Made by a program: the position numbers and the translations under genes
The notes under the pieces: generated by a model
What the model saw: the letters and a program-made list of their open reading frames with translations, nothing else
What the model was told of the DNA's origin: nothing
Database searches by the model: none
Shown: positions 1 through 61,990 of the stretch, in pieces
Position numbering within the stretch: the first letter of the stretch is position 1
Layout of the letters: every line of letters begins with the position of its first letter
Assembly: GCA_000091205.1 (NCBI GenBank)
Contig: AP006486.2
Source of the DNA: Cyanidioschyzon merolae
Taxonomy: Eukaryota
Reading direction: 5' to 3' (one strand)
Length of the DNA: 64,000 nt

Positions 1-627
1 GGGCTCCCGGAGCCTTCCGTCTCTTCTGTTCGCATGGAATCATACAAATGACCGCAGTTCAGCAGTACGCGCTCCAGGTATCCGCACGCCAGCGATCTTC
101 GCAACTGGGGCGAAGAGTGCTCCCCGCATACACCATGCGTATGCGCTGTGTTCTTGCGGGTCCATATGTGTGTCGTGTCGTTTATAGGATCCGGGGAACT
201 TGCGGTTGTGCGCAATGGTTATCGGCAGCAGGGAGATCGTACGTTCTTCCATGGACCCGAAATGCGGCGACCACGACAACCACCGACACTTCCACGATCT
301 TGCTCAGTTACCTCGATCCTCCTGGTGTCGTACGTCCGCCGGTGACACCCGCTAAGACGTTTACTCGCTTGTCTGGTGACCTGATTCCGCAGACAGGAAA
401 CTGATTCCCCAGATACGGCGTCGTTGATAGTCTGGTACACATTCGACGCATCCGCGGACTAGCTGTACATCACAAGGGGGCGCGTTCAGGAGCCCCTGGT
501 GTATCCAGTGTCACAGGCGATTCACATCACGATCAGAGCGGCATCCAGAGAAGCAGATCATGATCACATCGATTCCAATACTTGTTTACACGTGCAGTCT
601 CGTACTAGTCTCGTCAAGATGAAGCAC

Positions 628-1629
628 TCAGGAAGCTTCCAGGCGACGTTCCTGTGCTACCTGTTCATGCACGTACGCACGAAACCTTTCCAAATCTGCA
701 AGCAGCGTACGTTCGACGAAACCCTGCAACAAGGGCGCACTCTTGAGCCAGAGCGCTACCCATGCTGGCAACTCAAACGCCAGCTCAATTTCCAGCATCG
801 TACTCGGAACAGACGATGATGATAACGATGATGATGATGACGACGACGGCGACGACTTGTTCGTGTGCTCCCGAAACGCTACACGTCCACGATTACGGAG
901 GCCTCGCACGGATTCCCAGGCAATCTCTGTTGGCGGCTCGACACGAACCATACGAGCTTGCCAGGTGAACTCCAGTCCCTTCGCTGCAAGCGTCCAGTGC
1001 GTCAACTGCGGGTCTCGAGCATCGACTCGCACAGAGCGAAGCCAGGGCGACCAACGCGGCATCGCGTCGAGGTCACGATAGTGAGCAAACACGAGCTCCC
1101 GGGGTGCATCCACCTGGATAGCGGCTCGATGCTGTACCCAGGCGCACTCGAGCCGTCGTCGTACAACATGACGATGCCTAGCTGCGCACTTACGGACTTG
1201 TGTGGGTACCGTTTGCCAGAAGCCGGACACGCGCACCGCATCACCTGCGTCAGCTGGCAACGTCACCGACCGCTGAGCGAGCACCCAAGTCCCTGGTTGA
1301 GCGAGGACGTGCGCTGCGCGTACACGCCGACCCAAACGCCCTGCACTGCAGCAGATAGCGAGTCGAGTTCGTGGCAACGGGCGACCAGTAGCACAGAGCG
1401 CCCAGCCTAGAGCAAACGCTCGAGTCACTTGCGCCTGTCTGCTGATCAACGCTGGCTGCAGGCTCAATTCAGCGACAGCTTGCGTGCACGCGAACTGTTT
1501 GCAACGTGCTGGGGTACCGATGACGCCGACCTCAACGCCAGTGTCACCCGCAGCGCCACGCCAGGCTGCCGTACCGCAAGCTGTTCTCCGCGCACCAGAC
1601 ACCATCGCCTGGTACCGGCCGATGCGCAC
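628..1629 (-). CDS. SRPBCC/START-like (polyketide cyclase/COQ10-like) domain protein with Arg-rich N-terminus and a poly-Ser tract
   Basis: ORF translation ...ELVFAHYRDLDAMPRWSPWLRSVRVDARDPQLTHWTL...GLEFTWQARMVRVEPPTEIAWESVRGLRNRGRVAF... matches the SRPBCC/Coq10 fold pattern from memory. The N-terminus MRIGRYQAMVSGARR... looks like a mitochondrial presequence. The Ser-run is encoded by a GAT/GAC microsatellite at 814-856. Confidence 0.4.
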   Translation of the reverse strand: MRIGRYQAMVSGARRTACGTAAWRGAAGDTGVEVGVIGTPARCKQFACTQAVAELSLQPALISRQAQVTRAFALGWALCATGRPLPRTRLAICCSAGRLGRRVRAAHVLAQPGTWVLAQRSVTLPADAGDAVRVSGFWQTVPTQVRKCAARHRHVVRRRLECAWVQHRAAIQVDAPRELVFAHYRDLDAMPRWSPWLRSVRVDARDPQLTHWTLAAKGLEFTWQARMVRVEPPTEIAWESVRGLRNRGRVAFREHTNKSSPSSSSSSSLSSSSVPSTMLEIELAFELPAWVALWLKSAPLLQGFVERTLLADLERFRAYVHEQVAQERRLEAS

Positions 1630-2106
1630 TGCGAGACGAAACGCTTATCGTGCTTCGGATGTCGCTGTCCCGACTGACCGTAACGCTCACTCGAGGCAGA
1701 ACGGACGTCTGCACAGGAGCAGGCACCAAAGTGCCTCGTTGTTGCCCAGAGCCACTTGGCGTTGCCGCCAGAGCGCTCCGGTCTGTGCGCCGCTCGGGTG
1801 TCGGCAACACGCCACAACCCTTGCCAGAGCGTACAGTTAAGGAGGACAGCGTTTTACTCTTGCGCTGCACTAGAGATCGAGCACCAACAGTTCGCACTGC
1901 TCTACGAGCAGGTAACTCGGTGGCGATGCACCGTCCAAGCACAGCGCCGGGTGCTGGTACCCAGTTGTCGTACCTTTTTGGCAGTGTGTACGGGCAGTCA
2001 CACGGCCGCTGCGGTTCACGAACCTGGAGAGTACACACTCGAGCGATCAAGTACTCTAGCACGCAGATTAGAGGGTTGGTAAGCGACAACCGCGACCCGA
2101 GCACAC

Positions 2107-2133
2107 CCAGACACAGACACAGACACAGACAAC
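2107..2133. repeat. (ACAGAC)n microsatellite just 3' of separase stop
   Basis: acacagacacagacacagacaaca read directly. Confidence 0.8.
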
Positions 2134-2152
2134 ACCAGTACTGGCAGTCGTG

Positions 2153-3716
2153 TTACCGGAACGGTGCTCCGTAGACCACAGAGGCGGCGGCGTTCACCCA
2201 GCGCAGGCGACATGCAGCGCGCCCGGCCTGCAGCGCTGACGCAACCAGCAGAGGCGCTGCTGTCGAACGGGCATCTTCGACGACGCATCGACAATCCGAG
2301 TCAGCGTAGAATTGTTCTTGTCGTTGATGGTGTTGATGATGATGACGACGACGACGAGGATATTCGACTGGTTGTTCTCGACCGAGTCGCTGTGCATCCG
2401 CTTGTTCACGTTCGTGCAGTGAAATCGACGACGATAGCACCGCCTGTGTGGTTGCCGAGCGCTGGTGCGGCTCGGAGCGAGTCGCTTCCAGCGGGCAGAG
2501 CTCCTCCGAGCTCGTACTTGTCCAGGGTTTGCCAGGCATTGTGGCTGGCGGCTGTGCATTCGAGTCTGACCCCCGGGGTGCCATAGCATCAACTGGGGAG
2601 CTCTTGGCGCCGACGCACTGCGGACTCGTGGCGGCCGACAAGTGCTCCCACGTCGCCACAGTGAGTCGATCCAGGTCGCCGTCGGTGACATCCCAGAGCT
2701 GCGCGACGACGCCGTGGGCACCTGCGGCGAGCCAGTCGAGCGCTGCTCCGTGCGCATCGAGTGCCTCAGCGTGCTCCAGGAGGCCGCTGCGACAACCCAT
2801 GAGAAACACAGCCTGGGGCAGGGTCGTCGTTTGACGCACTAGGCGGCGTGGTTGTAGGTATGCTTCTCCGGTCCCGTGTCCGCAGTAGAGCAGAACACAG
2901 GGCTGTACTGCGGCCAGCGCTTGGGTGATGCTGGCGCGCTGGCTGTCGTCGGCACCAGCAGCGCTATCAGCATTTGCAGAAGCGGCTGCGGTTGCGGCAA
3001 GGTCGGTCCATCCGTACCGTAAGCGAAACCCGGGGTGATGCTCTAGGAGAGGCCGCAGGAAACGCTCGGTGCGGCGCAAGTCACCAGCTGGATTCAACAA
3101 GAAAGCTCCACGTTGCCAACCGGGTACCGCACTGCGAGTCAGGTGATGGTAGCGCTCCAGGGCTTGCTCGATCGCCGCACTAGCAGGGAAACGCATCGCA
3201 GCCGCGTGGCGCAGCGTCGGTGTCGACTCGAGCGGCAGCAAGTCGTGCTCCGCGTCCAGGAGCAGCAACACAACCGGAGCGACACCGGAATCCGAGCTGG
3301 TCGCATCTGGCACGCTACCGGCACCATCGAGCTGCTGCAGCTGCGATGCAGACGCGGCGTTCGACACCGAAGCCGCCAATGGCAATCCGCACAGGAGCGT
3401 CTCGAGACGCTGGTCGAGCCAGCGGCCCAGCTGCTGATCGAGGCGGGTGCGGGTGTCCCACCAGGCACGTCGCTCCGGAGCGGAAAGCGAGAGCGCCTCC
3501 GACTCCGAGGCAAGATGTGTTTGCGTGCCGGCCTGCAGCAGCTGGGCAAGCTCGCGCGCCAACTGCTGCGCGTCTGGCCGCTGGTCGTCGTGTACCAGCC
3601 GCTGGGCGTGCAGGTGCAGCACGGAACCCCGTGCGGCCTTGGTACAGCTGCATTCCGCGTGCTCATTGCAAGGCGTCCACGAAAGCGACTCGTCTGCCAC
3701 GTCATGTGGGGCATCT

Positions 3717-9205: not shown

Positions 9206-12200
9206 GCACCGCGTCTCGCACTGGCGATTTGAACGGCTGCGGCTGACGTCGCGCAGGCCGTTTGCTCTCGGAGTACTTGTATATAGTTTAGTACTAATAT
9301 GTTAATATGTGTTCAGCCTTGAGAATCATACGAGAATTGTTTCTCTGACAAAACATTCACGCACGCACTGGTCGTTTCGTATGCTCTATGTGTCGCCAAG
9401 TGCCTGGCGTGAGCGCCCGCAATAGCGCCTATAGCACCGGTGTAGTCGTAGCTCGGATAAAGGATGACTATGCCGTGCACCGGAGAGTGTCGGCTTGAGA
9501 GGATAAACTGATACACATTCAGAGACGCTTCCCAGCCGTTTTCGATCGGCCGACTGCCACCGGCTTCAGTTGCTCTTTGCACCATTCGAGCCTGAGAGGC
9601 TGCCCTACAAAGCTGGATTGCTTCAGCACCGCGTGTCTCGTCGTCAGCACCACATGTCGTCTGATCCTGATGGTGGTATTGAAGTCTTTGTTCACGAACT
9701 CCATGCGTTAGTTGCCACTAGTTGAATTCATCAATGCACGGATTCCTTGAAATCTTACCTTCTGTACCTCTGCAGGCTTGTCATCGTCAATTCGGGCAAA
9801 CACGTTTAAGCGACTGTCTCCCTTCTTCTCCGTCTTCTACGTTACCTGCTCTTCTTCTCGAAATGGTCGGAGAGAAGAGGATATTTTGGTTTCTTTGTTG
9901 AACCCGGTGTTGATTGCCCTCCGGGATTCCCGACTTATATGTCCCCAAGTTTTTCTCACATTTCTTATTTCTTCAAATGAAAGCACTTTTTGATGGCCTT
10001 CAGATGTGGACCTTACCCGACGAAGAAGGGCATGGAGAGGAAAGACGACACGTGCCCCCGTTTGTCACCGTGCCCCAGAAGCTTCAGCGATTCTCCCAGT
10101 TGAGCAGTGATTACGTTTCACGACAGAAAACTCTCCTTCGATGGGGTTGAATCACGTAGAGTGCGGAGGAATGCAAAACAGCTCTAGCCTGATGGAATTG
10201 GCAAAAGCTCGAACGCAACCGGAGTAGTGAAATGCCACGATGGCCAGTGAAGGGACCTCGCCAGACGTCAGGGGAAAGTCTTCAATGATTCGACGCAGTG
10301 GTTGATGCCATTATATGAGCCATCTCTACGAGCAAAATCTCGGGCGGCCAAATGAATCCGCTGCCGCCCGAACAAATGATGTCATCGTTCTCTGCGAGTT
10401 CGATCGTGCATACAACAGGCACCCCGCTCCGCGAATACCTGTACAGGTTACCATCGGATCGTCCGAGGGGAAGTTCATTGACTGGAAAAACAAACCGACG
10501 TTTCCGTGCTTCATACCGATCGCAACGTGCCTGCAACGCCATAATTTTGATTTCCGTCGAAGATGGCTGTGCATGCACTCGGACTTTCTTTTGCGACTAT
10601 ATCCCAGCGTTTTACGGGACCATACGAACAGGCTGCTGGGTACCGGTGACGCCCATGTCGACTCCTATTGTCGCATTTGCGTTCCATTAGGTAATCAACC
10701 GATCGCTTTCTATTCTTGAACGCAAACACGTTTTAAGAATATCGGGTTTTGGCGCGGAACGCATCACCTTCTTTCTTTAAATGTTCCTGAGCCATTCGGG
10801 TAATGTGTTATAACTGACCTGGAGGAGGAATGCAGTCCTCCTTGCACAGCTCAGTACAGAATCTATCTTAAATTCAATTCATCTACGATCTATACAGTAC
10901 ATGGCGACGTGATTTCAACCTCCTGCTATACACCCCAGCGGATGCGAAACAACATTGAGTTGAATGACTTTAAAACCCGGATGCATCGGCACCGCCAGCC
11001 TCCAAAGAAGCGATCAGCGCTCTGTTGCAGACGCGTGTACGTTCCGACTGTACTGGACCATTCTTGGCTTCGGGCGCAGCAGCTCGATCGATCCGAAGAC
11101 CTGTTGGGTAGCGAGTCTGCCTTTGGCGCTGGATTCGCCGGGTCTCGCTCGCGCAGGCAGAGCGCATAGACATGCAGGCGATGCGATACATCTACACACG
11201 TCGTTTCACGGTGCATGTGTCCTATGGATAGAAGCATCGCTCACGCGCCTGCTGGATCCGCGCTGCTGGTGAAGTTCGGCAAGGTTCCGCGAATCACGCG
11301 TTCAGAGTAACACTGGACAGGGGTCCGCCTGGAAGGCATTTTCAGCCCAGACGGATTTCTTCGTGCCTCTGGACGTGTGTGCAGTCTCATGTATGTGGTC
11401 GTTCAGTTGCGTCGAGTATACACTGCGGAATGGGGTTTTTTGGCGGCGGTCCATCGCGAGTAAGAGTAAGTCGCGTTGCCGCTAGGTATATCGGTATGCG
11501 TTTCTGGGCGTTTGGAAATGATGCTGGAGGCATTGAACCGATTCCCCAGAACACGCCCTACTGAAATTCAATGAGTTGTTCAGTACCCCGAGATACAAGC
11601 TGGCATGGCGATGACTTCATTGCAAACGCCCCGGCAACCGATGCAAATTGGCGTCCGCGCACAAGCTGTGCATGGAGGCAAGCTCCGGAGTCGATCGACC
11701 GACACAACTTGAAGAAGTAGGCGGGCACCCCAAAGCACACGTTTACGTGTGGCGCACCATCGGAATCAAGAATGATATGCTTTAACGGCGCGTAGGCCCG
11801 GGCTGCTTCTCGAGCCGACGGACGCGCGCGGACAAGCGGTCGATGCCGCAACTGCTTCCACAGGCACAAATAGATTTACGCGCTGATGTACATGCCGCCC
11901 ATTTGCACAGAAGGATCATCCCATGCGACAGACTCAGCTCTTCTTACTGCTTGTTTCTCGAGAAAATCTTTTGCTGTTACAGCACCGACGCTTCCCTGAC
12001 TCGCGATACCGCGTTCATGTGCATCCTCGGGGTATCACACGGGAGCACGGTATCGCGGTCGTCTTGGGTGCAGCGCGCATGAAGTCGTCCGACTCAAGCG
12101 CAGGCAAGAAGCAAGCAACAACTGCCGACGCTGCGCCCGCGTGCAACCCTCTGCGTCCCCGGCTCTGCCAGGGCCAAATCTTGACAACCACACAACTGAA

Positions 12201-24285: not shown

Positions 24286-25514
24286 TCACAGAAGAGATTC
24301 GGATGCCGCGGGACGGCACAAGACGTCCGAGCAGCTGGTGGCGTTCGGGTATCAAGGCATTGTACACGTTACGCGTTCTTCGGGGGCATGCACAGTCGAA
24401 GCATCAGCAGCGAGCATCTCGCAAAATGCGAGTACCGTCGACAATCGTGCGAATCATGGTAGCTACCGTACCTCTCGAGTAAGCCATGTTACCAGTTCTG
24501 ACCGTTCGTTGGCGCACAACCTGCAACAGTGAGCGCTGCACTGAACTCTGGTCCAGAATCGTTCCTATCGCGAGGCAAACTAGCGCGTAGACGCTCAAAT
24601 ATAGGAGTGGCGTGCTCGTTCCGGACCTACTGTATCGTGCCGCTCGTTTACACGTCGTCCATGAATGTGCGTGCGCGAAACGCGCTTCACTGCATGTGGT
24701 TCCACTGCCATTTGCAACACCGCGACACATCCACACCGCACTTAGACCGCGTGCGGCTACACTGCCAAACCGGATCCAGCGCCCAGCTATTCGCTCTGCC
24801 GCCTTCACAACCCGTGGCTGCGCAGCGGTGTCCCGCGTCAAGTGTCAAGCCTGTCGCGCCCGACTACTGCTCGTCTAGCCCGCTCGCACCAGCGCCATCA
24901 TTCGCCTGTTTCTGTTGCTGTCTGTCTCGTTTCCCTGGACGACTGTGTTGCTTTGCGTTCATCATCGTAAAGTAGAGACTGTAGACAGACTCTCGTTCCG
25001 CCGCACTAGCTGCTGCGTTTCCGCTCAGGTTAACACGTCTGCCGGGTGGACCACGAGGAACACGTTTCCGGTGCAAACGCGCATATTCCAAGTTGCGCAG
25101 CCGCTTCTCTTCCCGCAAGTCACGCCGTTGACGCATGAAGACTGACAGTGCTGCAGTGCCCGCCGAAGGGTACGGAGCACTGGAACGCTGCCTCGTTTCC
25201 ACTGCAGTTAATTTCTTCGAAGACGAAAGGAAAGCATATGAAGAATCTTTCGAAAAAGAAAGAGGTTTGAGTGATGAGATAAACATGACGTTCGATGGGT
25301 ACTTGGGAACGCCGCAACGCCACGAAACGACACCAAACGCCTTGCAGAAGAAAAACACTGCCGTGAGTGGTATTGTAGTGACGACGAACGCGTCTTGGAC
25401 AAACCATCTCCTGCTGACGGGCAGACGCCTCGCCGCCGTTCTCGACCGGCCACCCACGACTGGTTTCAACTTTTTCTCATATAGTTCTACTTTGAGAGGT
25501 TGTCCAACAAAATT

Positions 25515-27164
25515 CTATCTCGTCCACTCTGGAAGTCTATTCTCCAGCACCGCACATCTCCTTGTATTGATAGCGGCATTAATGTCTCGGTTCACAAACT
25601 CCATCCGTTTCTTGCCATCGTCGGTTGTACTTAATAATGCGAGTAGTCCACGAACTTTCGCTCTCCTTTCCATTTGCTCCTCCGTCAACGGTCCGTGCTT
25701 TGCTATTTCCTCAGGGCTCCGCTAATACGTTTCCATCTGGACCCTCTGGAGTGTACACCCCAGTTCATGGTGTGTATACGATGTTCGGAAGTCATCTACG
25801 GGCATCGTAACGAAACGCCGTGCGCACTCCTTGCACGTTTTTGTCGTTGGAGCTGGTGTAATGCCTTTTTTCGACGCCCAGCGCCCTGCTCCGTACGCTA
25901 CTACGAGCCTCTGACTTTCATTCTCCCTCCGGGCGCTCAACTGATTGAAAAAGTTCGAGAACGCCCGCTGCTTCCCACAACAGAAATTCATACGCAAACG
26001 AGCCCACCGGGGCTTGGTGGATTCTTTCCACAGGGCATCCCAATGAGCAGCGCGAACTTCCATGAACTCCCGAAATGCTTCAAAGTCGGTTCCTCGGCTC
26101 GTCACCTCGCTCAAAGCTTCCAGGTGATCCCTCACTCCTGAATTCCATCCAACGATTTTCATCCTCGCATTCATTATACCGGATTCCCGGTAATATCTAG
26201 CTCTTGACAACCTCAGCAGACGCTTGTCTTTATGACGTCAATTGTCGTCGACACTATCTTCCGCACGCTTGGGTACAGCGATGGTTATGATATTTGTGTT
26301 TCCGGGGTCCGCGCCAACGACAAAGCCGTTATCGTGCGCTTTCTGTGTTGCACGATCCACCTCCTTCTTTTCTCGATGCTTCGCCGCGCCAACGACAAAG
26401 CCGTTATCGTGCACTTCGTGTGTCGCAGGATCCTCCTTCTTCGTACCTTCATCCTTCGCCACGGGCGGAGCTGGACGATCTGTCTTCAAGCGCCGATAGT
26501 GTACAGACATGGCTACTCCATCGCTTTCGATCATCCCAGTGAATACCTTTCGCTTGCTCACTTTCAGACGTTTGAAATCGGCGAAATTCTTCTTCCAGTG
26601 CGTCTCCCGGCTTTCGCCGGAGAACTCCTCCCTGCTGACATGGAACTCGGGACTGATCTCCCTCATGATGCCGTAAAGGACGCCTGAATCGATAGTCACG
26701 AAATGTGACCTGATGTTGCACATTGGAACCACGTTGAAGCGCTTCCCCATTAGGAAAGCCTTCCGCCTCTCCCACTCCTCATTTGTCTCCTCATTCAGCT
26801 TCATTTCCGCCTTGCGTTCCAGCTCTCCGTCCAGAAACACGAAATAGCGCAGGGCGAGGCGATAGTATCTTTCCTTATCTTTTTTCGACTCTGATATCTT
26901 GTCTGTTGGACTCAGCAGCCCCAGTGCCGCACGGTGCTCTTCTACAACCGCACGGATGACAGAAGCTTCATTCGTGCTCTCGTTTGACGCCTTGTCTCCG
27001 ACGAATTCGATCTCCTGTTCATGCTGGCGATCGTTCGTGACGCCATTGGTAATCGCCCATTTTCCTTTGCGAGCGATGCCAGGGTACAGCGCAAACACGG
27101 CGCGTATCATGAAGCGTTCGAGGTTCATAGTCAAATGGTTCTTCAGGTTCGTGATGTACTTCAT
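25515..27164 (-). pseudogene. TnpB/Fanzor-like RuvC nuclease ORF (copy 1), interrupted
   Basis: RuvC-I-like [14 protein letters not shown]; RLVVAYGAGRW block; zinc-finger TCKECARRF...HHELGC; RuvC-III NRDINAAINIRRR after an in-frame TAG. There is an extra stop after ...DSVDDN. Confidence 0.55.
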
Positions 27165-28068
27165 CGCTCCGTATGTGTAAATGCACCAGTCAATTTTGTA
27201 TCGAGTACCGTCGAAGCTCTAAAAGGGATGTTTTTCGTGGAGGGCATGCACTAGCACACTTTCCCTCGGCGCTTCCGCTGCACCAAGCATCAGCTGTCGA
27301 ATAAAGGTCTTATCGAGAAACCCGTCCGGAATCCCGACCGTTTCCACCTGCGCCACGTCGCGATACATCTCCCTCGCCATATGCATCAGTCCTGACGACG
27401 CCTTGACAATACTCTTGGAGTATGACGCAACACTGTTTTCGATAGCGTCTCGCAGCTTTTCCCTGTACGGATCCTTGATATGTTTAAGAAGACAGACTTT
27501 GACGACCTACTTGTCGCACAGTCGTCTTTCGTGCCGCCTTCGACGCAGAGCGTCCCCCTTTCAGTCCTTCTTCTCTTCCTTTTCTTCTGGACTTGGCACT
27601 GTTTTTCTGTTTTTTCTGGCAGCCAGCGACACTGGGCCTCCAGGATCGTCGACTTGCTTTTCATAACTTCCTTTTTTTGTTTTTTTGGAAAACAACGCTC
27701 CCTCCAACGCCTCTGATATAAACAGCGAGGAAAACTTGAATAAACCAAACTGAGGGTTGAAATATAACTGAACTGAAAAGTACACTCTGCTATGACTTTA
27801 ACGCAAATGCAACTTGTACTTGAGAGCAACACGCTCAAGATCGCGATCCCGTTTCCCTTCAACGGCGAGACGCGTCGCGTTAGTTGACTGCCCGATCTCC
27901 CAGATGCGCCCACCGAGCGCGATTCTTTTTTTTCATGGACAAAACGTGTGCATAGGCCAGTGCTCTCGGATTATGCGCATTTTTCTTTTCTTTCTCTTTT
28001 ATTTTGTGTTTAACTTCAGTGCGCGGTAATGTATCTATAAAGCCCCCTCCCTCCAAGTTACATTACCT

Positions 28069-28500
28069 ATGCTGATTCTCGGATATTCTGGTCGTTTCAT
28101 ACGTCCTATCGTGTGTGCCTAGTACCTGCCTTTCCATATCCGCCTTTGGACCTTAAATGCTGGAGCAGATAGTTCATCGAGCTAGAGCAGCTTTTCTATA
28201 CCCCAGAGGGCGTCGGCTCGAGGCGTGCTTCACCCGACGTAGAATCGGGTCTCGTCGTCAGTTTGTGCTCGGACAGTCTGCGGATGCAGGCCTGTATTCG
28301 CTGCACGACATGCTGGAGAAACTTGACTATTAGGATGAATCCTGGGAGACGCCTCTCTCCCTCGTGATCATGCATGGAATGCGTTGTTGTCGGTTGGCAA
28401 TGCGGGTTTGTGCTTGACGCTCACCACAGTGGGTAGGCGCAGAAAGCATACTAAACCCGTGTGCGCGTCCGATTCGCTAGACCTTCCGCTTGGAAGGTAG
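28069..28500. repeat. about 430 bp core inside the element 5' region, related to the 55.2/61.3 kb repeats; contains a conserved hairpin gaccttccgcttggaaggta
   Basis: Shares ctcggatat.ctggtcgtttc.ta, ggcgtcggctcgaggcgtg.tt.c.ccgacgt and gaccttccgc.t.gaaggta blocks with 55309-55740 and 61429-61870. Confidence 0.45.
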
Positions 28501-29708
28501 CACGTGAGTCTGTTGGCCACGAATGAGCGCTGAGGCTCCGTTAGCGGACCATCAGTTGCCAGTGCTGCACTCAAAGTGAGTGTCCGGCCTTCGACTATCA
28601 CGGTGATACCCAGCTGCTGGTGTCCTTCAAGGAGCTCGCTGCGCTCCTGCTTCCAGCGCGGGCACTGTAACAGTAAATATGTCAGCGTCTCGGGGATCTC
28701 GTTTCCACAGCAGGGACATTTTGATTCTCAGTGCAATCCCAGTGTTCCCATACGGCTTAGAGTCGGTGCTGCTAGCCAGAAGCCACCAACGCGGATTTTG
28801 GCGCGCCACTGGCTACCGCGCGCAAGTCCCGGGAGCTCCAGCGCCTCCCACCAGTACTTGCATGTTTATGCCGGGTTCTAGTTCCGGTGTAGAGTCAAGA
28901 CGGGCGTTACTGGCACGACTGGTTCCGTGTCTACGTTCCCATATTGCTTTCTGGACGGTTCGCTTGAGGCGGCGGGAGCCTTCTACATTTCGGGGAAACG
29001 ATTGGAGAGCGTGTCTTCGCCTACGGAGAGATCAGATTGCGCGCACGCTCATCGCCGCTGATTGAAATTGGCCCGTTCGCGCGTCATGACCCGTGTCGTT
29101 GACACGCGGGTCATTCTGAAGCGCGCATCGCGCCTGCGCCAGCGCCGCAGCGGCCGCAGTGCTACGTGTCCACGTATCGAGCGATCCGCATGCGTGCGGT
29201 AAACGGATCAGCACGTGCGTTCGTTCGTGCGTGACAGGGCATCGAGCGAAAACGGATCCCCGCTGAGGCCAGTAACGTCGATGCCTGAAGCAACATGTCA
29301 ATGAGCCTGGTCCGTCGATGACGTTTCGTCGGAGGTGTTGGCCTCCCCAGAGCGTCGTTGTATGCTCATGTACGGGTTGATATTGGGTTAGGTTTAGGTT
29401 CGAGGTCAAGTCAACTGTGCCTGTTATCTGGTTCGCCATTGACGGGTGGCTCGATATCGCTGAGCGGTACCCAGCGCTGTGGGCCACTGTGTGCATATAG
29501 TTGAGGTGCACTTTGGGGTCCTCGAGGTTCGGTGGAAGTTGCCTGTTTGCAACTTGTTACTTGCACACAACGATTACGCACCGTTTCGAAGGCGAAACGC
29601 CCTCGTAGCGCCACAGCGAGTACGCGCTTGTAGAACAAGTTCACGGAAAGCGTCTGCAGCCGAGTCGTCTGGTGCCTGTGCGCAGTCGGCTCCGAGTCAC
29701 AGCCACCG

Positions 29709-48794: not shown

Positions 48795-51340
48795 GAATGC
48801 CTTTTACAAGAAAAAACGTTGCTGCCGCAAGTGGTATAGTAGTGGCGACAAACGCACCGTAGACAAGGAGTCTTCAGCCGACGTGCAGACGCATCTCAGT
48901 CTTTCTCGACCGGCCACCCACTACTTCTTCCAACATTTTTTCATATAGTTCGAGTTTGAGAGGTTGTCCAACAAAATTCTATCTCGTCCACTCTGGAAGT
49001 CTATTCTCCAGCACCGCACGTCTCCTTATATTGATAGCGGCATTAATGTCTCGGTTCACAAACTCCATCCGTTTCTTGCCATCACTGGATGTACTTAATA
49101 ATGCGAGTAGTCCACGAACTTTCGCTCTCCTTTCCATTTGCTCCTCCGTCAACGGTCCGTGCTTTGCTATTTCCTCAGGGCTCCGCTAATACTTTTCCAT
49201 CTCGACCCTCTGAAGTGTACACCCCAGTTCATGGTGTGTATACGATGTTCGGAAGTCATCTACGGGTATCGTAACGAAACGCCGTGCGCACTCCTTGCAC
49301 GTTTTTGTCGTTGGAGCTGGTGTAATGCCTTTTTTCGACGCCCAGCGCCCTGCTCCATACGCTACTACGAGCCTCTGACTTTCATTCTCCCTCAGGGCGC
49401 TCAACTGATTGAAAAAGTTCGAGAACGCCCGCTGCTTCCCACAATACAAATTCATACGCAAACGAGCCCACCGGGGCTTGGTGGATTCTTTCCACAGGGC
49501 ATCCCAATGAGCAGCGCGAACTTCCATGAACTCCCGAAATGCTTCAAAGTCGGTTCCTCGGCTCGTCACCTCGCTCAAAGCTTCCAGGTGATCCCTCACT
49601 CCTGACTTCTAGGTCTCATTTTGTTTCCTCGCATTCATTATACCGGAATCCCGGTAGGATCTCGCTCTCGGGAACTTGAAAACTCGCATGTCTTTATGAC
49701 GTAAATTGTCGTCGACACTATCTTCCGCACGCTTGGGTACAGCGACGGTTATGATATTTGTGTTTCCGGGGTCCGCGCCAACGACAAAGCCGTTATCGTG
49801 CACTTTCTGTGTTGCACGATCCACCTCCTTCTTTTCTCGATGCTTCGCCGCGTCAACGACAAAGCCGTTATCGTGCACTTCGTGTGTCGCAGGATCCTCC
49901 TTCTTCGTACCTTCATCCTTCGCCACGGGCGGAGCTGGACGATCTGTCTTTAAGCGCCGATAGTGTACAGACATGGCTACTCCATCGTTTTCGATCATCC
50001 CAGTGAATACCTTTCGCTTGCTCACTTTCAGACGTTTGAAATCGACGAAATTCTTCTTCCAGTGCGTCTCCCGGCTTTCGCCGGAGAACTCCTCCCTGCT
50101 GACATTGAACTCCGGACTGATCTCCCTCATGATGCCGTAAAGGACGCCTGAATCGATAGTCACGAAATGTGACCTGATGTTGCACATTGGAACCACGTTG
50201 AAGCGCTTCCCCATTAGGAAAGCCTTCCGCCTCTCCCACTCTTCATTTGTCTCCTCATTCAGCTTCATTTCCGCCTTGCGTTCCAGCTCTCCGTCCAGCA
50301 ACACGAAATAGCGCAGGGCGAGGCGATAGTATCTTTCCTTATCTTTTTTCGACTCTGATAGCTTGTCTGTTGGACTCAGCAGCCCCAGTACCGCACGATG
50401 CTCTTCTACAACCGCACGGATGACAGAAGCTTCATTCGTGCTCTCGTTTGACGCCTTCTCTCCGACGAATTCGATCTCCTGTTCATGCTTGCGATCGTTC
50501 GTGACGCCATTGGTAATCGCCCATTTTCCTTTGCGAGCGATGCCAGGGTACAGCGCAAACACGGCGCGTATCATGAAGCGTTCGAGGTTCATAGTAAAAT
50601 GGTTCTTCAGGTTCCTGATGTACTTCATCGCTCCGTATGTGTAAATGCACCAGTCAATTTTGTATCGAGTACCGTCGAAGCTCTAAAAGGGATGTTTTTC
50701 GTGGAGGGCATGCACTAGCACATTTTCCCTCGGCGCTTCCGCTGTACCAAGCATCAGGTGTCGAATAAAGGTCTTATCGAGAAACCCGTCCGGAATCCCG
50801 ACCGTTTCCATCTGCGCCACGTCGCGATACATCTCCCTCGCCATATGCATCAGTCCTGAAGACGCCTTGACAATACTCTTGGAGTATGACGCAACACTGT
50901 TTTCGATAGCGTCTCGCAGCTTTTCCCTGTACGGATCCTTGATATTTTTAAGAAGACAGACTTTCACCACCTTCTTGTCGCACAGTCGTCTTTCGTGCCG
51001 CCTTCGACGCAGAGCGTCCCACTTTCAGTCCTTCTTCTCTTCCTTTTCTTCTGGACTTGGCACTGTTTTTCTGTTTTTTCTGGCAGCCCGCGACACTGGG
51101 CCTCCAGGATCATCGACTTGCTTTTCATAACTTCCTTTTTTTTGTTTTTTTTTGGAAAACAACGCTCCCTCCAACGCCTCTGATATAAACAGCGAGGAAA
51201 ACTTGAATAAACCAAACTGAGGGTTGAAATATAACTGAACTGAAAAGTACACTCTGCTATGACTTTAACGCAAATGCAACTTGTACTTGAGAGCAACACG
51301 CTCAAGATCGCGATCCCGTTTCCCTTCAACGACGACATGC
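48795..51340 (-). mobile_element. Fanzor/TnpB-bearing repeat element, copy 2 (5'-truncated), left arm of a head-to-head inverted pair
   Basis: Homologous to copies 1 and 3 from the 3' region through the nuclease ORF. Ends at the junction string gttgaagggaaacgggatcgcgatc..., lacking its own 5' region. Confidence 0.6.
48979..50628 (-). pseudogene. TnpB/Fanzor-like RuvC nuclease ORF (copy 2), interrupted
   Basis: Same motifs as the other copies; private frameshift/stop after ...ARKQNET plus the shared in-frame TAG before RuvC-III. Confidence 0.55.
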
Positions 51341-54300
51341 GCGTCGTATCTCATGCCTGCCAGATATGGAGGTGCGCGTATCGACCGCGATGCCCCCTGG
51401 CACTGTATGGGCCGAGGGGCCCACCATGCGCACCCGGTTCAGTCGGATATCCATGCAGACCCCAACGCACCGCAAGAACACTTGGATGAAATCGATGCAG
51501 ATTTGGCTGAAGCGACGGTTATGCGAAAACACGCTCGAATCGTTCCCCAGAAATGTAGAAGGCTCCTACCGCCTCAAGCGAACTGTTCGAACAACCATAT
51601 GGGAACGTAGACACGGAACCAGTCGCGCCAGTAACGCCCGCCTTGACTCTATACCGGAACTACAACCTAGCATACACATGCGAGTACTGGTGGGAGGCGC
51701 TGGAGTTCCCGGGACTTGCTCGCGGTATCCAGTGGCTCGCCAAAATCCGCGTTGGTGGTTGCTGACTACCAGCACCTGCGCTAAACCATATAGGAACACT
51801 GGAATCGCAGTGGGAATCACACTGTCCCTGCTGTGGAAACGATAAACCCGAGACGCTGACATATTTAGGCTTACAGTGCGCGCGCTGGAAGCAGGAGCGC
51901 AGCGAGCTCCTTGAAGGACGGCATCAGCCGGGTATCACCGTGATAGTCGAAGGCCGGACACTCACTTTGAGTGCAGCACTGGCAACTGATGGTCCGCTAA
52001 CGGAGCCTCAGCGCTCATTCGTGGCCAACAGACTCACGTGCTACCTTCCAAGCGGAAGGTCTAGCGAATCGGACGCGCACACGGGTTTAGTATGCTTTCT
52101 GCGCCTATCCACTGTGGTGAGCGTCAAGCACAAACCCGCATTGCCAACCGACAACAACGCGTTCCATGCATGATCACGAAGGAGAGAGACGACTCCCAGA
52201 ATATATCTTAACGGCCAAGTGTCTCCAGCGTGTCGTGCCGCGAAGGCAAGCTTGCATCCGCAGACCGTCCGAGCACAAACTGACGACGAGACCCGATTCT
52301 ACGTCGGGTGAAGCACCCCTCGAGCCGACGCCCTCTGTGGTATGGAAAAGCCGTTCTAGCTCGATAAACTCTCTGCCCCAGCGGTTCAAGCGCAAAGGCG
52401 GATATGGAACGGCAGGTATTAGGTACCCACGACAGGACGTATGAGACGATCAGTATCTCCAAGAAGAAGTATAGGTAATGTAACTTGGAGGGAGGGGGCT
52501 TTATGGATATATTACCGCGCGCTGAAGTAAAACGCAAAACAAAAGAGAACGAAAAGAAAAAGCGCACAATAGGAGAATGCTGGCCCAAGTAAACGTCTTA
52601 TCAATAGAAAAATTGCCGTCGTTGAAGGGAAACGGGATCGCGATCTTGAGCGTGTTGCTCTCAAGTACAAGTTGCATTTGCGTTAAAGTCATAGCAGAGT
52701 GTACTTTTCAGTTCAGTTATATTTCAACCCTCAGTTTGGTTTATTCAAGTTTTCCTCGCTGTTTATATCAGAGGCGTTGGAGGGAGCGTTGTTTTCCAAA
52801 AAAAACAAAAAAAAGGAAGTTATGAAAAGCAAGTCGATGATCCTGGAGGCCCAGTGTCGCGGGCTGCCAGAAAAAACAGAAAAACAGTGCCAAGTCCAGA
52901 AGAAAAGGAAGAGAAGAAGGACTGAAAGTGGGACGCTCTGCGTCGAAGGCGGCACGAAAGACGACTGTGCGACAAGAAGGTCGTCAAAGTCTGTCTTCTT
53001 AAACATATCAAGGATCCGTACAGGGAAAAGCTGCGAGACGCTATCGAAAACAGTGTTGCGTCATACTCCAAGAGTATTGTCAAGGCGTCTTCAGGACTGA
53101 TGCATATGGCGAGGGAGATGTATCGCGACGTGGCGCAGATGGAAACGGTCGGGATTCCGGACGGGTTTCTCGATAAGACCTTTATTCGACACCTGATGCT
53201 TGGTACAGCGGAAGCGCCGAGGGAAAATGTGCTAGTGCATGCCCTCCACGAAAAACATCCCTTTTAGAGCTTCGACGGTACTCGATACAAAATTGACTGG
53301 TGCATTTACACATACGGAGCGATGAAGTACATCAGGAACCTGAAGAACCATTTTACTATGAACCTCGAACGCTTCATGATACGCGCCGTGTTTGCGCTGT
53401 ACCCTGGCATCGCTCGCAAAGGAAAATGGGCGATTACCAATGGCGTCACGAACGATCGCAAGCATGAACAGGAGATCGAATTCGTCGGAGAGAAGGCGTC
53501 AAACGAGAGCACGAATGAAGCTTCTGTCATCCGTGCGGTTGTAGAAGAGCACCGTGCGGCACTGGGGCTGCTGAGTCCAACAGACAAGATATCAGAGTCG
53601 AAAAAAGATAAGGAAAGATACTATCGCCTCGCCCTGCGCTATTTCGTGTTTCTGGACGGAGAGCTGGAACGCAAGGCGGAAATGAAGCTGAATGAGGAGA
53701 CAAATGAGGAGTGGGAGAGGCGGAAGGCTTTCCTAATGGGGAAGCGCTTCAACGTGGTTCCAATGTGCAACATCAGGTCACATTTCGTGACTATCGATTC
53801 AGGCGTCCTTTACGGCATCATGAGGGAGATCAGTCCCGAGTTCCATGTCAGCAGGGAGGAGTTCTCCGGCGAAAACCGGGAGACGTACTGGAAGAAGAAT
53901 TTCGTCGATTTCAAACGTCTGAAAGTGAGCAAGCGAAAGGTATTCACTGGGATGATCGAAAGCGATGGAGTAGCCATGTCTGTATAGTATCGGCGCTTGA
54001 AGACAGATCGTCCAGCTCCGCCCGTGGCGAAGGATGAAGGTACGAAGAAGGAGGATCCTGCGACACACGAAGTGCACGATAACGGCTTTGTCGTTGACGC
54101 GGCGAAGCATCGAGAAAAGAAGGAGGTGGATCGTGCAACACAGAAAGTGCACGATAACGGCTTTGTCGTTGGCGCGGACCCCGGAAACACAAATATCATA
54201 ACCGTCGCTGTACCCAAGCGTGCGGAAGATAGTGTCGACGACAATTTACGTCATAAAGACAAGCGTCTGCTGATGTTGTCAAGAGCTAGATATTACCGGG

Positions 54301-55165
54301 AATCCGGTATAATGAATGCGAGGAAGAAAATCGTTTCATGGAATTCAGGAATGAAAGATCACCTGGAAGCTTCGAGCGAGGTTACGAGCCGAGGAGCCGA
54401 CTTTGAAGCATTTCGGGAGTTCATGGAGGCTCGCGCTGCTCATTGGGATGCCCTGTGGAAAGAATCCACCAAGCCCCGGTGGGCTCGTTTGCGTATGAAT
54501 TTCTGTTGTGGGAAGCAGCGGGCGTTTTCGAACTTTTTCAATCAGTTGAGCGCCCGGAGGGAGAATGAAAGTCAGAGGCTCGTAGTAGCATACGGAGCAG
54601 GGCGCTGGAAGACCCAAAAGGGACTATGCCAGCTCCAACGACAAAAACGTGCAAGGAGTGCGCACGGCGTTTCGTTACGATGCCCGTAGATGACTTCCGA
54701 ACATCGTATACACACCATGGACTGGGGTGTACACTCCAGAGGGTCCAGATGGAAAAGTATTAGCGGAGCCCTGAGGAAATAGCAAAGCACGGACCTTTGA
54801 CGGAAGAGCAAATGGAAAGGAGAGCGAAAGTTCGTGGACTACTCGCATTATTAAGTACATCCAGTGATGGCAAGAAACGGATGGAGTTTGTGAACCGAGA
54901 CATTAATGCCGCTATCAATATAAGGAGACGTGCGGTGCTGGAGAATAGACTTCCAGAGTGGACGAGATAGAATTTTGTTGGACAACCTCTCAAACTCGAA
55001 CTATATGAAAAAATGTTGGAAGAAGTAGTGGGTGGCCGGTCGAGAAAGACTGAGATGCGTCTGCACGTCGGCTGAAGACTCCTTGTCTACGGTGCGTTTG
55101 TCGCCACTACTATACCACTTGCGGCAGCAACGTTTTTCTTTCGAAAGGCGTTCGCTAGCAGCCTT
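51341..55165 (+). mobile_element. Fanzor/TnpB-bearing repeat element, copy 3 (with 5' region), right arm of the inverted pair
   Basis: The 5' region 51535-52625 matches copy 1 27870-29025 in inverted orientation. The body 52625-55165 is the inverted duplicate of 48795-51340. Confidence 0.6.
53322..54969 (+). pseudogene. TnpB/Fanzor-like RuvC nuclease ORF (copy 3; most contiguous), interrupted by in-frame stops
   Basis: ...[16 protein letters not shown] (RuvC-I) ... [18 protein letters not shown] ... RLVVAYGAGRW ... C-x2-C zinc finger ... EKY-TAG-RSPEEIAKHGPLTEEQMERRAKVRGLLALLSTSSDGKKRMEFVNRDINAAINIRRRAVLENRLPEWTR (RuvC-III). A private TAG sits at 53988. An in-frame 95 aa N-terminal extension (about 52980-53270) is separated from the main ORF by a single TAG. 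Confidence 0.6.
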
Positions 55166-55189: not shown

Positions 55190-55870
55190 CTGCGTTTTTT
55201 TTTCTGATGAAAAAATGGTTAGATTCACTATGGATCCCAGAATTCGGAATGGATAATGGCTTTCGGGAAAGCGTCCACGATGAAGCGCCTACCTTCAAGT
55301 TCTATCACGCATACTTCCTCTCGGATATACTGGTCGTTTCGTATATTCTATCGTGCGCCGAGCCTGCCGTGAACACCCGCCGTAGCGCTTATACCACTGA
55401 AGCAGATGCCACACGGAGACAGAACGGCTTTGCCATACCACTGAAGGCATCGACTCGAGGCGTGGTTCCTCCGACGTGGGGTCGGAGTACATAATATATC
55501 TGGGAGCCTGTAAGCTGCGCAGACAGACGCACTGCCTGTGGCAGCGCGGAGCGATCTACAAGGAGTCCACTGTGACCACGGAGACGCCCAGACGCAGCAT
55601 CCTGCTCCAAGTCCCCGAATGAAATGCGTTGCGGACGAGTTGTGCAGGTATCGCCACAAAACCTGCCATTGGAGGAAGCATGAAGCACTAGCTAGCCCCG
55701 AAGACTCGTCCGGCTCGCGGGACCTTCCGCCTAGAAGGTAAAGTTTCGAAGATGCGGAAACTTTCCCCCTTTTCCATGAGTCATATCAAGGTCGAAAGAA
55801 ACTGTTATCGAGTTGCTAGTCAGTTGTTAGTTTCTGTTCTTTCGTCTCTAGGAGAAAGCTCGCTGCTCAC
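55190..55870 (+). repeat. about 680 bp dispersed repeat (family R), copy adjacent to element copy 3
   Basis: About 80% identical, in direct orientation, to 61320-61990. Core 55309-55740 is related to the element 5' region and ends with the hairpin gaccttccgcctagaaggta. Confidence 0.6.
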
Positions 55871-61319: not shown

Positions 61320-61990
61320 CCCTTTTTTTCGATGACGAAACGTTTATATGGACCGTGGATCCCAGATTGCTGAATCCATACAGGCTTTCGGGAATGTTTC
61401 CATTATGCAGGGCAATACTCCCAAGTTCCGTCACGTATACTTCCTTTCGGATATACTGGTCGTGTTGTACATGCTATCGTTCACAGAGTACCCGCTGTGA
61501 GCGCTCGCCGTAGCGCCTTTACCGCTGGTGCGGATGAAGCGCGGAGACGGAACGGCGTTGGTATGCCCATAGACATGTAGGCTCGAGGCATGGTGCACCT
61601 GATACGGTGTCGGAGTACGTAGTAATTCTGGGAGCCTGCAAACTGCGTAGACAGACCTACTGCCTGCGGTACCGGGAGGCGATAAACTAGGAGTCCACCG
61701 CGACCGGGGTGATATCCAGATGCAGCTTAACTGCCCCTAGTCCTGGAATAAACTGCACTGCGGACGAGTTGCTCAGATCTCACTGAGGCACGAGGCACAG
61801 TGGGGAGCAAGAAGCGCAAGCGCGGCAAACTCGTCCGGCTCACGGGACCTTCCGCCTGGAAGGTAAACTAGCGATAATACGGAAACCTTTTCCCCTTTTA
61901 CCGTCTACGTTAGAGAGGGAAAGAAATCGCTATCTCGTTCCTAGTTCGTGGTTCGTCTCTGTTCTCTTTTCTATCCCACATCAATCTATG
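61320..61990 (+). repeat. about 680 bp dispersed repeat (family R), second copy
   Basis: Aligned by eye to 55190-55870, including tggatcccaga..., ggagtac.ta.ta.t.tctgggagcctg.aa.ctgcg.agacagac and ...ctcgtccggctcacgggaccttccgcctggaaggtaaa. Confidence 0.6.

Follow-up and report, generated by a model that had tools for sequence, protein, structure and literature searches.

Why do three copies of a nuclease-like gene share two in-frame TAG codons, with the reading frame continuing undisturbed beyond each of them? The question arises in a 64,000-nt stretch of nuclear DNA from strain 10D of the red alga Cyanidioschyzon merolae, contig AP006486.2 (hereafter the window), in which three 2.5-kb repeat copies, A and B on the minus strand and C on the plus strand, are 95.7-97.1% identical to one another. 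The first-pass annotation of this DNA had placed three explanations side by side, namely amplification of an already dead master, programmed readthrough and an unusual processing event. Our analysis argues for the first of these, and we put the probability at about 0.93 that A, B and C are dead pseudogene copies of the published transposon CMe-1A, whose TAGs would be ordinary nonsense mutations in an already non-functional progenitor. The coordinates of all features are collected in Table 1.

Table 1 Repeat copies, motifs and lesions in the window. Letters A, B and C denote the three copies; the strand is given in brackets.
Feature	Position (strand)	Remarks
Copy A	25338-27921 (-)	CMe-1A core, consensus 648-3169
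Copy B	48799-51389 (-)	CMe-1A core, consensus 648-3168; collinear with upstream repeat X, as in relative L014
Copy C	52617-55150 (+)	CMe-1A core, consensus 703-3169; probable Fanzor1 pseudogene; BLASTN against the published consensus, 83.5-86.5% identity; three-copy alignment
Repeat X, ~1.2 kb	51406-52610 (-)	Between B and C; collinear with B as in L014, head-to-head with C
Second copy of X	28036-29023 (+)	Head-to-head with A, joined at the same X end point as C; 90% identical
Solo 5' 645-bp CMe-1A module (TE-N2_CMe-like)	55206-55850 (+)	55 nt downstream of copy C
Second solo TE-N2-like unit	61330-61974
ATG + A4 run, 1-nt deletion	C 52822-52828 (+); A 27658-27664 (-); B 51122-51128 (-)	Relatives A5, consensus GAAAA
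In-frame TGA, family codon 35	C 52923-52925 (+); A 27561-27563 (-); B 51025-51027 (-)	Close relatives CGA Arg, consensus CAA Gln
TAG1 (HEKHPF-stop-SFDG), family codon 149	C 53265-53267 (+); A 27219-27221 (-); B 50683-50685 (-)	Consensus and relatives TAC/TAT Tyr
RuvC-I Asp, GAC of GADPGNTN	C 54177-54179 (+)	Retained in all three copies; in 45/70 environmental copies
GAC Asp in place of the conserved Glu in VDEFRTS, family codon 603	C 54692-54694 (+)	Asp in all three 10D copies
TAG2 (QMEKY-stop-RSPEE), family codon 626	C 54761-54763 (+); A 25722-25724 (-); B 49186-49188 (-)	Consensus and relatives CAG Gln
RuvC-III Asp, GAC of NRDINAA (NRDINAAINI)	C 54899-54901 (+)	Retained; D in 75/87 environmental copies
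'Terminal' TAG, family codon 695	C 54968-54970 (+); A 25515-25517 (-); B 48979-48981 (-)	Relatives mostly GAG Glu, also AAG, AGG and others
Private TAG of C	53985-53987 (+)	CAC His in A, B and wild orthologue L004
Private 1-nt deletion of C	54622/54623, within 54618-54628 (+)	Also in wild orthologues L004, L011
Private TAG of A	27507-27509 (-)	AAG in B and C
Private TGA of A	26238-26240 (-)	TTA in B, C; also in L004, wild orthologue of C
Private TAG of B	49609-49611 (-)	TGG Trp in A, C; edge of the ~80-nt divergent patch

The three copies and their family

Fanzor1 proteins are eukaryotic relatives of TnpB, an RNA-guided RuvC nuclease. When aligned by BLASTN with the published 3169-bp CMe-1A consensus (from position 648 or 703 to 3169), A, B and C are 82.8-86.9% identical to it. 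All three thus share at least about 80% nucleotide identity with the family over most of the consensus, their host is Cyanidioschyzon merolae, and on this nucleotide evidence we assign them to CMe-1A, a Fanzor1 transposon family of C. merolae that has already been published. CMe-1A is the single Fanzor1 family described in this alga, with about 150 old copies (Bao & Jurka 2013, Mobile DNA 4:12; PMC3627910). According to its describers, who assigned CMe-1 to Fanzor1 and deposited the consensus sequence together with its 734-aa protein in supplementary files, each copy is about 80% identical to the 3169-bp consensus and lacks terminal inverted repeats, and some copies in the C. merolae genome are still intact (PMC3627910). 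The window copies resemble the published element and its protein in their host, in 83-87% DNA identity over the 2.5-kb core, in a conceptual protein collinear over 734 codons, in the lack of terminal inverted repeats and in their association with the TE-N2_CMe module. They differ from it in forming a young sub-group (96-97% mutual identity, about 16% from other copies), in lacking the 5' 645-bp module, in adjoining the 1.2-kb repeat X in either orientation, and in being dead, whereas some published copies are intact (PMC3627910).

A protein search returned 94 relatives, of which nearly all come from metagenomes of the hot-spring type in which C. merolae-like contigs also occur; several of the 94 are uninterrupted at both TAG positions. 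An exact look-up found none of the ORF fragments of the copies among the annotated proteins of strain 10D. For relatives, a match to PF26935 (DUF8286) is precomputed.

The conceptual protein retains the RuvC-I and RuvC-III aspartates, and about 175 residues separate the RuvC-I D from the TS of FRTSYTHH (motif window 125-275); the Glu that comes before this dipeptide in Fanzor1 (DE[FY]xTS) is Asp in the window copies. The C4 zinc finger (OrfB_Zn_ribbon, CxxC...CxxC) is absent between TS and RD in the CMe-1 lineage: the CMe-1A consensus keeps only HH..C..(9)..C, of which the second Cys is Tyr in the window copies, and no part of it occurs in the distant homologues P0091 and P0092. Among Pfam families, the conceptual protein and its relatives gave only a sub-threshold PF07282 TNB match (E 0.11) confined to the final 10 residues of the TNB domain, and a sequence-profile search of the PDB gave no match. 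We therefore turn to P0002, the closest relative that is nearly intact, whose AF2 model is of low to moderate confidence (pLDDT 57.5). The model's best seven Foldseek matches in the PDB are all Fanzors (SpuFz, PpFz and GtFz; E 9.8e-12 to 1e-7, probability 1.00), followed by Cas12j at E ~0.1, and the predicted fold is that of a Fanzor relative. The likeness to the solved Fanzors SpuFz1 (8GKH, 9CEU), PpFz and GtFz thus lies in this predicted fold and in the RuvC-I D and RuvC-III RD motifs; the differences are a sequence identity of only ~13-14% with TM-scores of 0.22-0.32, the degenerate zinc ribbon of the CMe-1 lineage, and the inability of the window copies to make protein. Bacterial TnpB (IS200/IS605, IS607; PF07282 Cas12f1-like TNB / OrfB_Zn_ribbon) has the same motif order, D...[TS][TS]...RD, but the N-terminal half of CMe-1 is much longer, and both the C4 zinc ribbon and a TnpA partner are missing. 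For an omega-RNA, no Rfam match was found in the window, and shuffled sequences fold as well as the 3' tails (z -1.4 to 0.1) in what is a weak test.

The surroundings of the copies are composite. The canonical 5' module (635/645 bp, shared with TE-N2_CMe) is absent, and because consensus positions 1-647 are unattached in A, B and C, all three are 5'-variant or truncated members of CMe-1A. Part of the repeat X (52292-52495) resembles positions 84-282 of the 5' module of CMe-1A and TE-N2 at 76% identity. We considered X as a truncated LINE on account of a 255-aa ORF in L014 with a C..C...H...C-like stretch and rejected it, since this ORF has no Pfam match; X is also dissimilar to the neighbour in L015 that bears a reverse transcriptase, and it is partly related to the TE-N2/CMe-1A 5' module. 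The head-to-head arrangement B-X-C and the recurrence of the same junction between X and the core at A suggest local duplication or rearrangement of composite pieces, not three clean transpositions.

Ancestral codons and shared lesions

Both in-frame TAGs reported for the three copies are present where the first-pass annotation had placed them, with the downstream frame unchanged, and copy A differs just before the second by reading METY. The RuvC-III segment (NRDINAAINIRR) follows TAG2 in the same frame in all three copies, again as reported. The majority consensus of A, B and C forms one long frame, broken at both TAG positions.

The family supplies the sense codons that stood at these positions. 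The published CMe-1 Fanzor1 protein reads AEYRFNG at the TAG1 site and EMEKCQRSPED at the TAG2 site. The uninterrupted ORFs P0001-P0005, P0007 and P0012 carry Y and Q at the two sites, and in the protein alignment, which is gap-free on both sides, the uninterrupted relatives read HEKHPF-Y-SFNG and EMEKC-Q-RSPED. At the DNA level, L014, L015 and the consensus have TAC at the first site and CAG at the second. A degenerate 20-mer around codon 626, scanned over the metagenome contigs, hit 121 environmental sites, where this codon is CAG in 108 and TAG in 13. Because the alignment has no gaps at either site, each TAG is best read as a one-base nonsense change, TAC (Tyr) to TAG and CAG (Gln) to TAG, and not as an intron or a recoding site. 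The first-pass annotation had itself stated that it would be undone by further copies in which both sites hold sense codons, and with TAC and CAG the consensus and the uninterrupted relatives are such copies.

In view of the same alignment, it is extremely unlikely that either TAG belongs to a short intron or to a segment that RNA or protein processing takes out. A 26-nt GT...AG interval does span TAG2, but its removal would break the frame, and the intact relatives and the consensus align with the copies residue by residue across both positions (EKC-Q-RSPE and HPF-Y-SFNG). Since this alignment is collinear and the flanking codons are coding, an intron or removed segment is excluded. The C. 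merolae genome, which uses the standard code, also has very few introns, only about 27. The earlier dismissal of a short GT-AG intron therefore agrees with the intact relatives, and the unusual processing event does not, given that no intron-sized gap appears at either TAG.

The two TAGs are accompanied by further changes common to all three copies. A 1-nt deletion after the family ATG places this ATG out of frame with the ORF, and no in-frame ATG is found upstream of the shared A-run deletion in the three copies either. An in-frame TGA follows at family codon 35. At codon 603, the Glu of VDEFRTS, which we take to be the RuvC-II acidic residue with a catalytic role as judged from Fanzor and TnpB in general, is replaced by Asp; it is kept in 79/89 environmental copies. 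The codon directly before TAG2 is TAT (Tyr) in the window copies versus TGC or TGT (Cys) in the family. Finally, the relatives run past the position of the 'terminal' TAG (NFVGQPLK), which is premature with respect to the consensus. As stops are scattered through the C-terminal tail of many copies, a nearly intact one included, this tail may be dispensable and the 'terminal' TAG may be harmless. Neither these additional shared lesions nor the CMe-1A identity had been noticed in the first-pass annotation.

Mosaic copies and the spread of lesions

Each copy also bears nonsense or frameshift lesions of its own, located in A, B and C (Table 1), and the earlier statement that none is intact holds. 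The history of such variants is less simple than three separate lines of descent. The copy that is the odd one out switches in blocks along the element, and many 'private' variants turn out to represent the outgroup state. The ~80-nt divergent patch of B is also found in the wild orthologue of C, which combines A-, B- and C-type patches: it is without the private TAG of C and has the TGA of A together with the patch of B. Because the mosaicism is block-wise, it indicates that the copies have probably exchanged sequence by gene conversion.

The shared lesions are seen again in independent metagenome contigs that cover the orthologous loci and whose flanks match the window at 98.6-99.4% identity. 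TAG2 is present in L002, L004 and L011, TAG2 together with the terminal TAG in L066, and all shared lesions in L067 and L123. The lesions are thus not assembly errors, and they are older than the divergence of the strains.

When polarised by the outgroup and tallied by eye, the private substitutions fall on codon positions 1, 2 and 3 in the ratio 11:16:16, a spread that would be expected of neutral drift since the copies diverged. The pairwise dN/dS is 0.40 for C-B and 0.67-0.87 for the other pairs, and values below 1 could hint at constraint. Given the mosaic structure of the copies and the outgroup state of many 'private' variants, we set dN/dS aside as an uninformative neutrality test among the three; the values below 1 may be explained by imported, previously selected sequence.

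These observations fit a progenitor that would already have been non-functional, having acquired TAC to TAG at codon 149 and CAG to TAG at codon 626. The same progenitor would also have carried the frameshift behind the ATG, TGA in place of CGA, the Glu to Asp change at the conserved acidic residue and the Cys to Tyr change beside TAG2. Its lesions could have spread by descent from the one defective copy, through trans-mobilisation or local duplication, or by later homogenisation through gene conversion, and both routes may have contributed. Amplification of an already dead master, one of the options offered at the outset, is supported by the sense codons in the consensus and relatives, by the additional shared inactivating changes and by the even codon-position spread. 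The likeness to ordinary transposon pseudogene families, such as non-autonomous copies and gene-converted repeats that multiply or stay alike once inactivated, extends to shared and private lesions, an even spread over codon positions and mosaics, with no notable difference.

The order of these events, and the respective parts of duplication and conversion in spreading the lesions, can be read from the same data only with some reserve. Three independent and originally different insertions might instead have received the same TAGs by gene conversion from one defective copy, which we hold to be possible but distinctly less likely. The block-wise mosaic structure of the copies, the A-type and B-type patches in the wild orthologue of C, and the identity of only 90% between the X repeats beside A and C, as against 96-97% for the cores, would all be accommodated by this course. 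However, the five shared lesions span 2.1 kb and occur in every copy and in the wild orthologues as well, which would demand near-complete homogenisation, and the outcome would be the same as under descent, namely dead copies with ordinary nonsense mutations.

TAG codons in the host and in the family

The host genes of the window bear on whether TAG could be read as sense, in the organism at large or in the element through a dedicated suppressor. The 12 long host ORFs are uninterrupted, and TAG, TAA and TGA each end four of them. Five long host ORFs are exact C. merolae 10D proteins, including an Unc-18-like protein (BAM79224), a chlorohydrolase (BAM79229), a GATA factor (BAM79233) and a Bdp1-like protein (BAM79234), and the TAG-ended host ORFs correspond exactly to the annotated BAM79229.1 and BAM79234.1. 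TAG is accordingly a working stop of annotated host genes, and genome-wide reassignment is as improbable as the first-pass annotation had judged it. There is no tRNA gene in the window, and thus no suppressor tRNA there. Nothing beyond the two shared TAGs themselves speaks for a sense reading, but TGA and TAA stops are scattered equally through the family copies, and the two TAGs replace different residues, Tyr and Gln. Because two different amino acids are replaced, reassignment is excluded, and we give a sense reading of TAG a practically negligible chance.

Readthrough, whether programmed or leaky, would yield a full-length Fanzor1, with near-cognate tRNAs inserting Tyr and Gln and with the TAGs acting as an expression throttle. 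In yeast, near-cognate tRNAs insert Tyr and Gln at UAG, and the ancestral residues at the two sites are just these; they are, however, merely residues whose codons lie one base from TAG. The base after TAG2 is C, a weak termination context, but that after TAG1 is A, a strong one. The C-B dN/dS of 0.40 could be taken as a trace of selection, but is accounted for by mosaic, imported sequence, and the private changes are spread evenly over the codon positions. TAG626 recurs in several lineages, but the stop is not conserved, with CAG in 108/121 relatives, and the share of TAG among stops matches the mutational expectation. Most of all, the out-of-frame ATG, the shared TGA, the Glu to Asp change and the private stops and frameshifts would call for 3-5 readthrough events together with non-ATG initiation. 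Since there is no usable start, and a TGA and two TAGs are shared and private stops added to them, readthrough cannot rescue a full-length protein. An intact flanking ORF, purifying selection and a conserved stop and context, by which a recoding site would be recognised, are not displayed by the window copies. Programmed readthrough, the second option of the first-pass annotation, hence fails on an ORF without in-frame ATG, on the shared TGA and on the use of TAG as a working host stop, and we rate it as very improbable. A candidate recoding or readthrough signal is thereby removed; the lesson is that when copies of a repeat have in-frame stops in common, comparison with the family consensus should come first.

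The frequency of TAG in the family leads to the same picture of decay. In a codon-level alignment of 91 environmental copies, each sharing at least 80% identity with the consensus, we counted 303 in-frame stops, 47% TAG, 35% TGA and 18% TAA. Of all one-nucleotide changes that turn a codon of this ORF into a stop, 50-51% give TAG, and there is no excess over mutational expectation in both shared stops being TAG. All 41 of the 41 full-length environmental copies have at least one stop and at least one frameshift. CMe-1A is a typical decaying transposon population, in which TAG nonsense is the commonest lesion. The ORF is rich in Lys, Glu and Gln, with G-ending codons.

TAG626 recurs in about four lineages, and in one of them (L060/L096), which differs from the window copies by 17%, TAG149 is present as well. 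Its haplotype around codon 149 resembles another sub-group (L088-like), and it is without TGA35 and TAG695. Of 378 lineage pairs that differ by more than 6%, 28 have a single nonsense codon in common and just one has two; a rough Poisson estimate made by hand gives about 1.1 pairs sharing two stops. Common ancestry of L060/L096 and the 10D trio through TAG149 and TAG626 was considered and rejected, as the local haplotypes differ and one pair in 378 is close to chance; we treat the double TAG of L060/L096 as coincidence or a short conversion tract. The recurrence of TAG626, and of TAG149 with TAG626 in two lineages 17% apart, could alternatively reflect selection for TAG-interrupted Fanzor1 genes, a reading to which we attach very little weight. 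If it were true, the selected form might be truncated proteins without RuvC-III that restrain active elements, or low-level readthrough that keeps the nuclease dosage tolerable in a 16.5-Mb genome.

With ordinary nonsense mutations in dead CMe-1A copies as the preferred reading, the feature is an ordinary, known transposon family, described before and here decayed, and as such matters little. Of use to a search for active Fanzors in C. merolae are the local map of CMe-1A, the evidence of conversion and the degenerate zinc ribbon of the CMe-1 lineage. The P0002-type locus, which still has the N-terminal 1-nt deletion and lies between the BAM82337 and BAM82338 orthologues in wild relatives, shows the least damage of the copies compared.

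Mosaic copies and recurring stop codons

The three decayed core copies of the Fanzor1 transposon CMe-1A (named A, B, and C) were found to be block-wise mosaics of one another when the copy C region was compared with A, B, and positions 1-1800 of metagenome contig L004. A-type, B-type, and C-type patches are likewise mixed in L004 and L011, the metagenome contigs that carry the wild orthologue of copy C. Judged from these sequence patterns, the block-wise mosaicism together with the mixed patches in the wild orthologue indicates ongoing gene conversion among the dispersed copies. The C. merolae genome is usually described as repeat-poor.

The TAG at family codon 626 was seen repeatedly among metagenome contigs, in about four CMe-1A lineages (recurring TAGs are listed for L060, L096, L024, L065, L032, L097, L116, L117, and L136). 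L060 and L096 also carry TAG at codon 149 and hold the same pair as the window, with a different local haplotype. Codon 692 is TAG in 16 copies. The least damaged family member among the copies seen is P0002 on contig L014, an ORF of 752 codons whose full length is maintained in several strains (five cluster members, 752 aa). Just two lesions mark it: 1 nt is missing from an A-run close to the N-terminus, and the C-terminal tail contains a TAA. The locus is flanked by orthologues of BAM82338 and BAM82337, which are consecutive accessions in the 10D annotation.

Duplicated units and the zinc ribbon of the Fanzor ORF

A 75-nt tandem duplication lies within the ORF, and its two units are 81% identical. 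The upstream unit encodes a decayed duplicate of a 12-residue stretch in the strand bearing the RuvC-I Asp, and this Asp directly follows the second unit. The number of units varies among relatives and is higher in P0002 and in the related protein P0012. The zinc ribbon (family codons about 605-660) is degenerate across the whole CMe-1 lineage, where HH..C..(9)..C replaces the CxxC...CxxC that defines TnpB/Fanzor; two distant homologues (P0091 and P0092) have zero Cys/His in this region.

Repeat X, solo modules, and fragments

Cores B and C share a single 1.2-kb repeat X and stand head-to-head around it, forming an inverted-duplication structure. Locus A shows the same junction between the X end and the core 5' end; its X is 90% identical, versus 96% for the cores. 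In the relative on L014, X is collinear with its own core, as in B. The X of L014 contains a 255-aa ORF on the strand opposite to the adjoining Fanzor core. This ORF has no match in Pfam and is broken into fragments in the window.

Coordinates of features (window positions unless a contig is named)
Feature	Position	Strand	Identity to CMe-1A consensus
P0002 ORF	L014:6001-8259		
Copy C region compared	52614-55146		
B-X-C	48799-55150		
Locus A with X	25338-29023		
X ORF, entire	L014:4832-5599	-	
X ORF, fragments	51366-52444	+	
75-nt tandem duplication	54023-54172		
Zinc ribbon, copy C	54698-54860		
Solo 5' 645-bp module, TE-N2_CMe-like	55206-55850		80-82% (range for both)
Solo 5' 645-bp module, TE-N2_CMe-like	61330-61974		80-82% (range for both)
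Short weak match	9367-9431		85% over 66 nt
Short weak match	9585-9751		69% over 170 nt

The short weak matches to consensus segments, just downstream of a 2350-aa host ORF, are probably old fragments. The first solo module follows copy C after only 55 nt, and the GATA factor gene lies about 400 nt downstream of this module.
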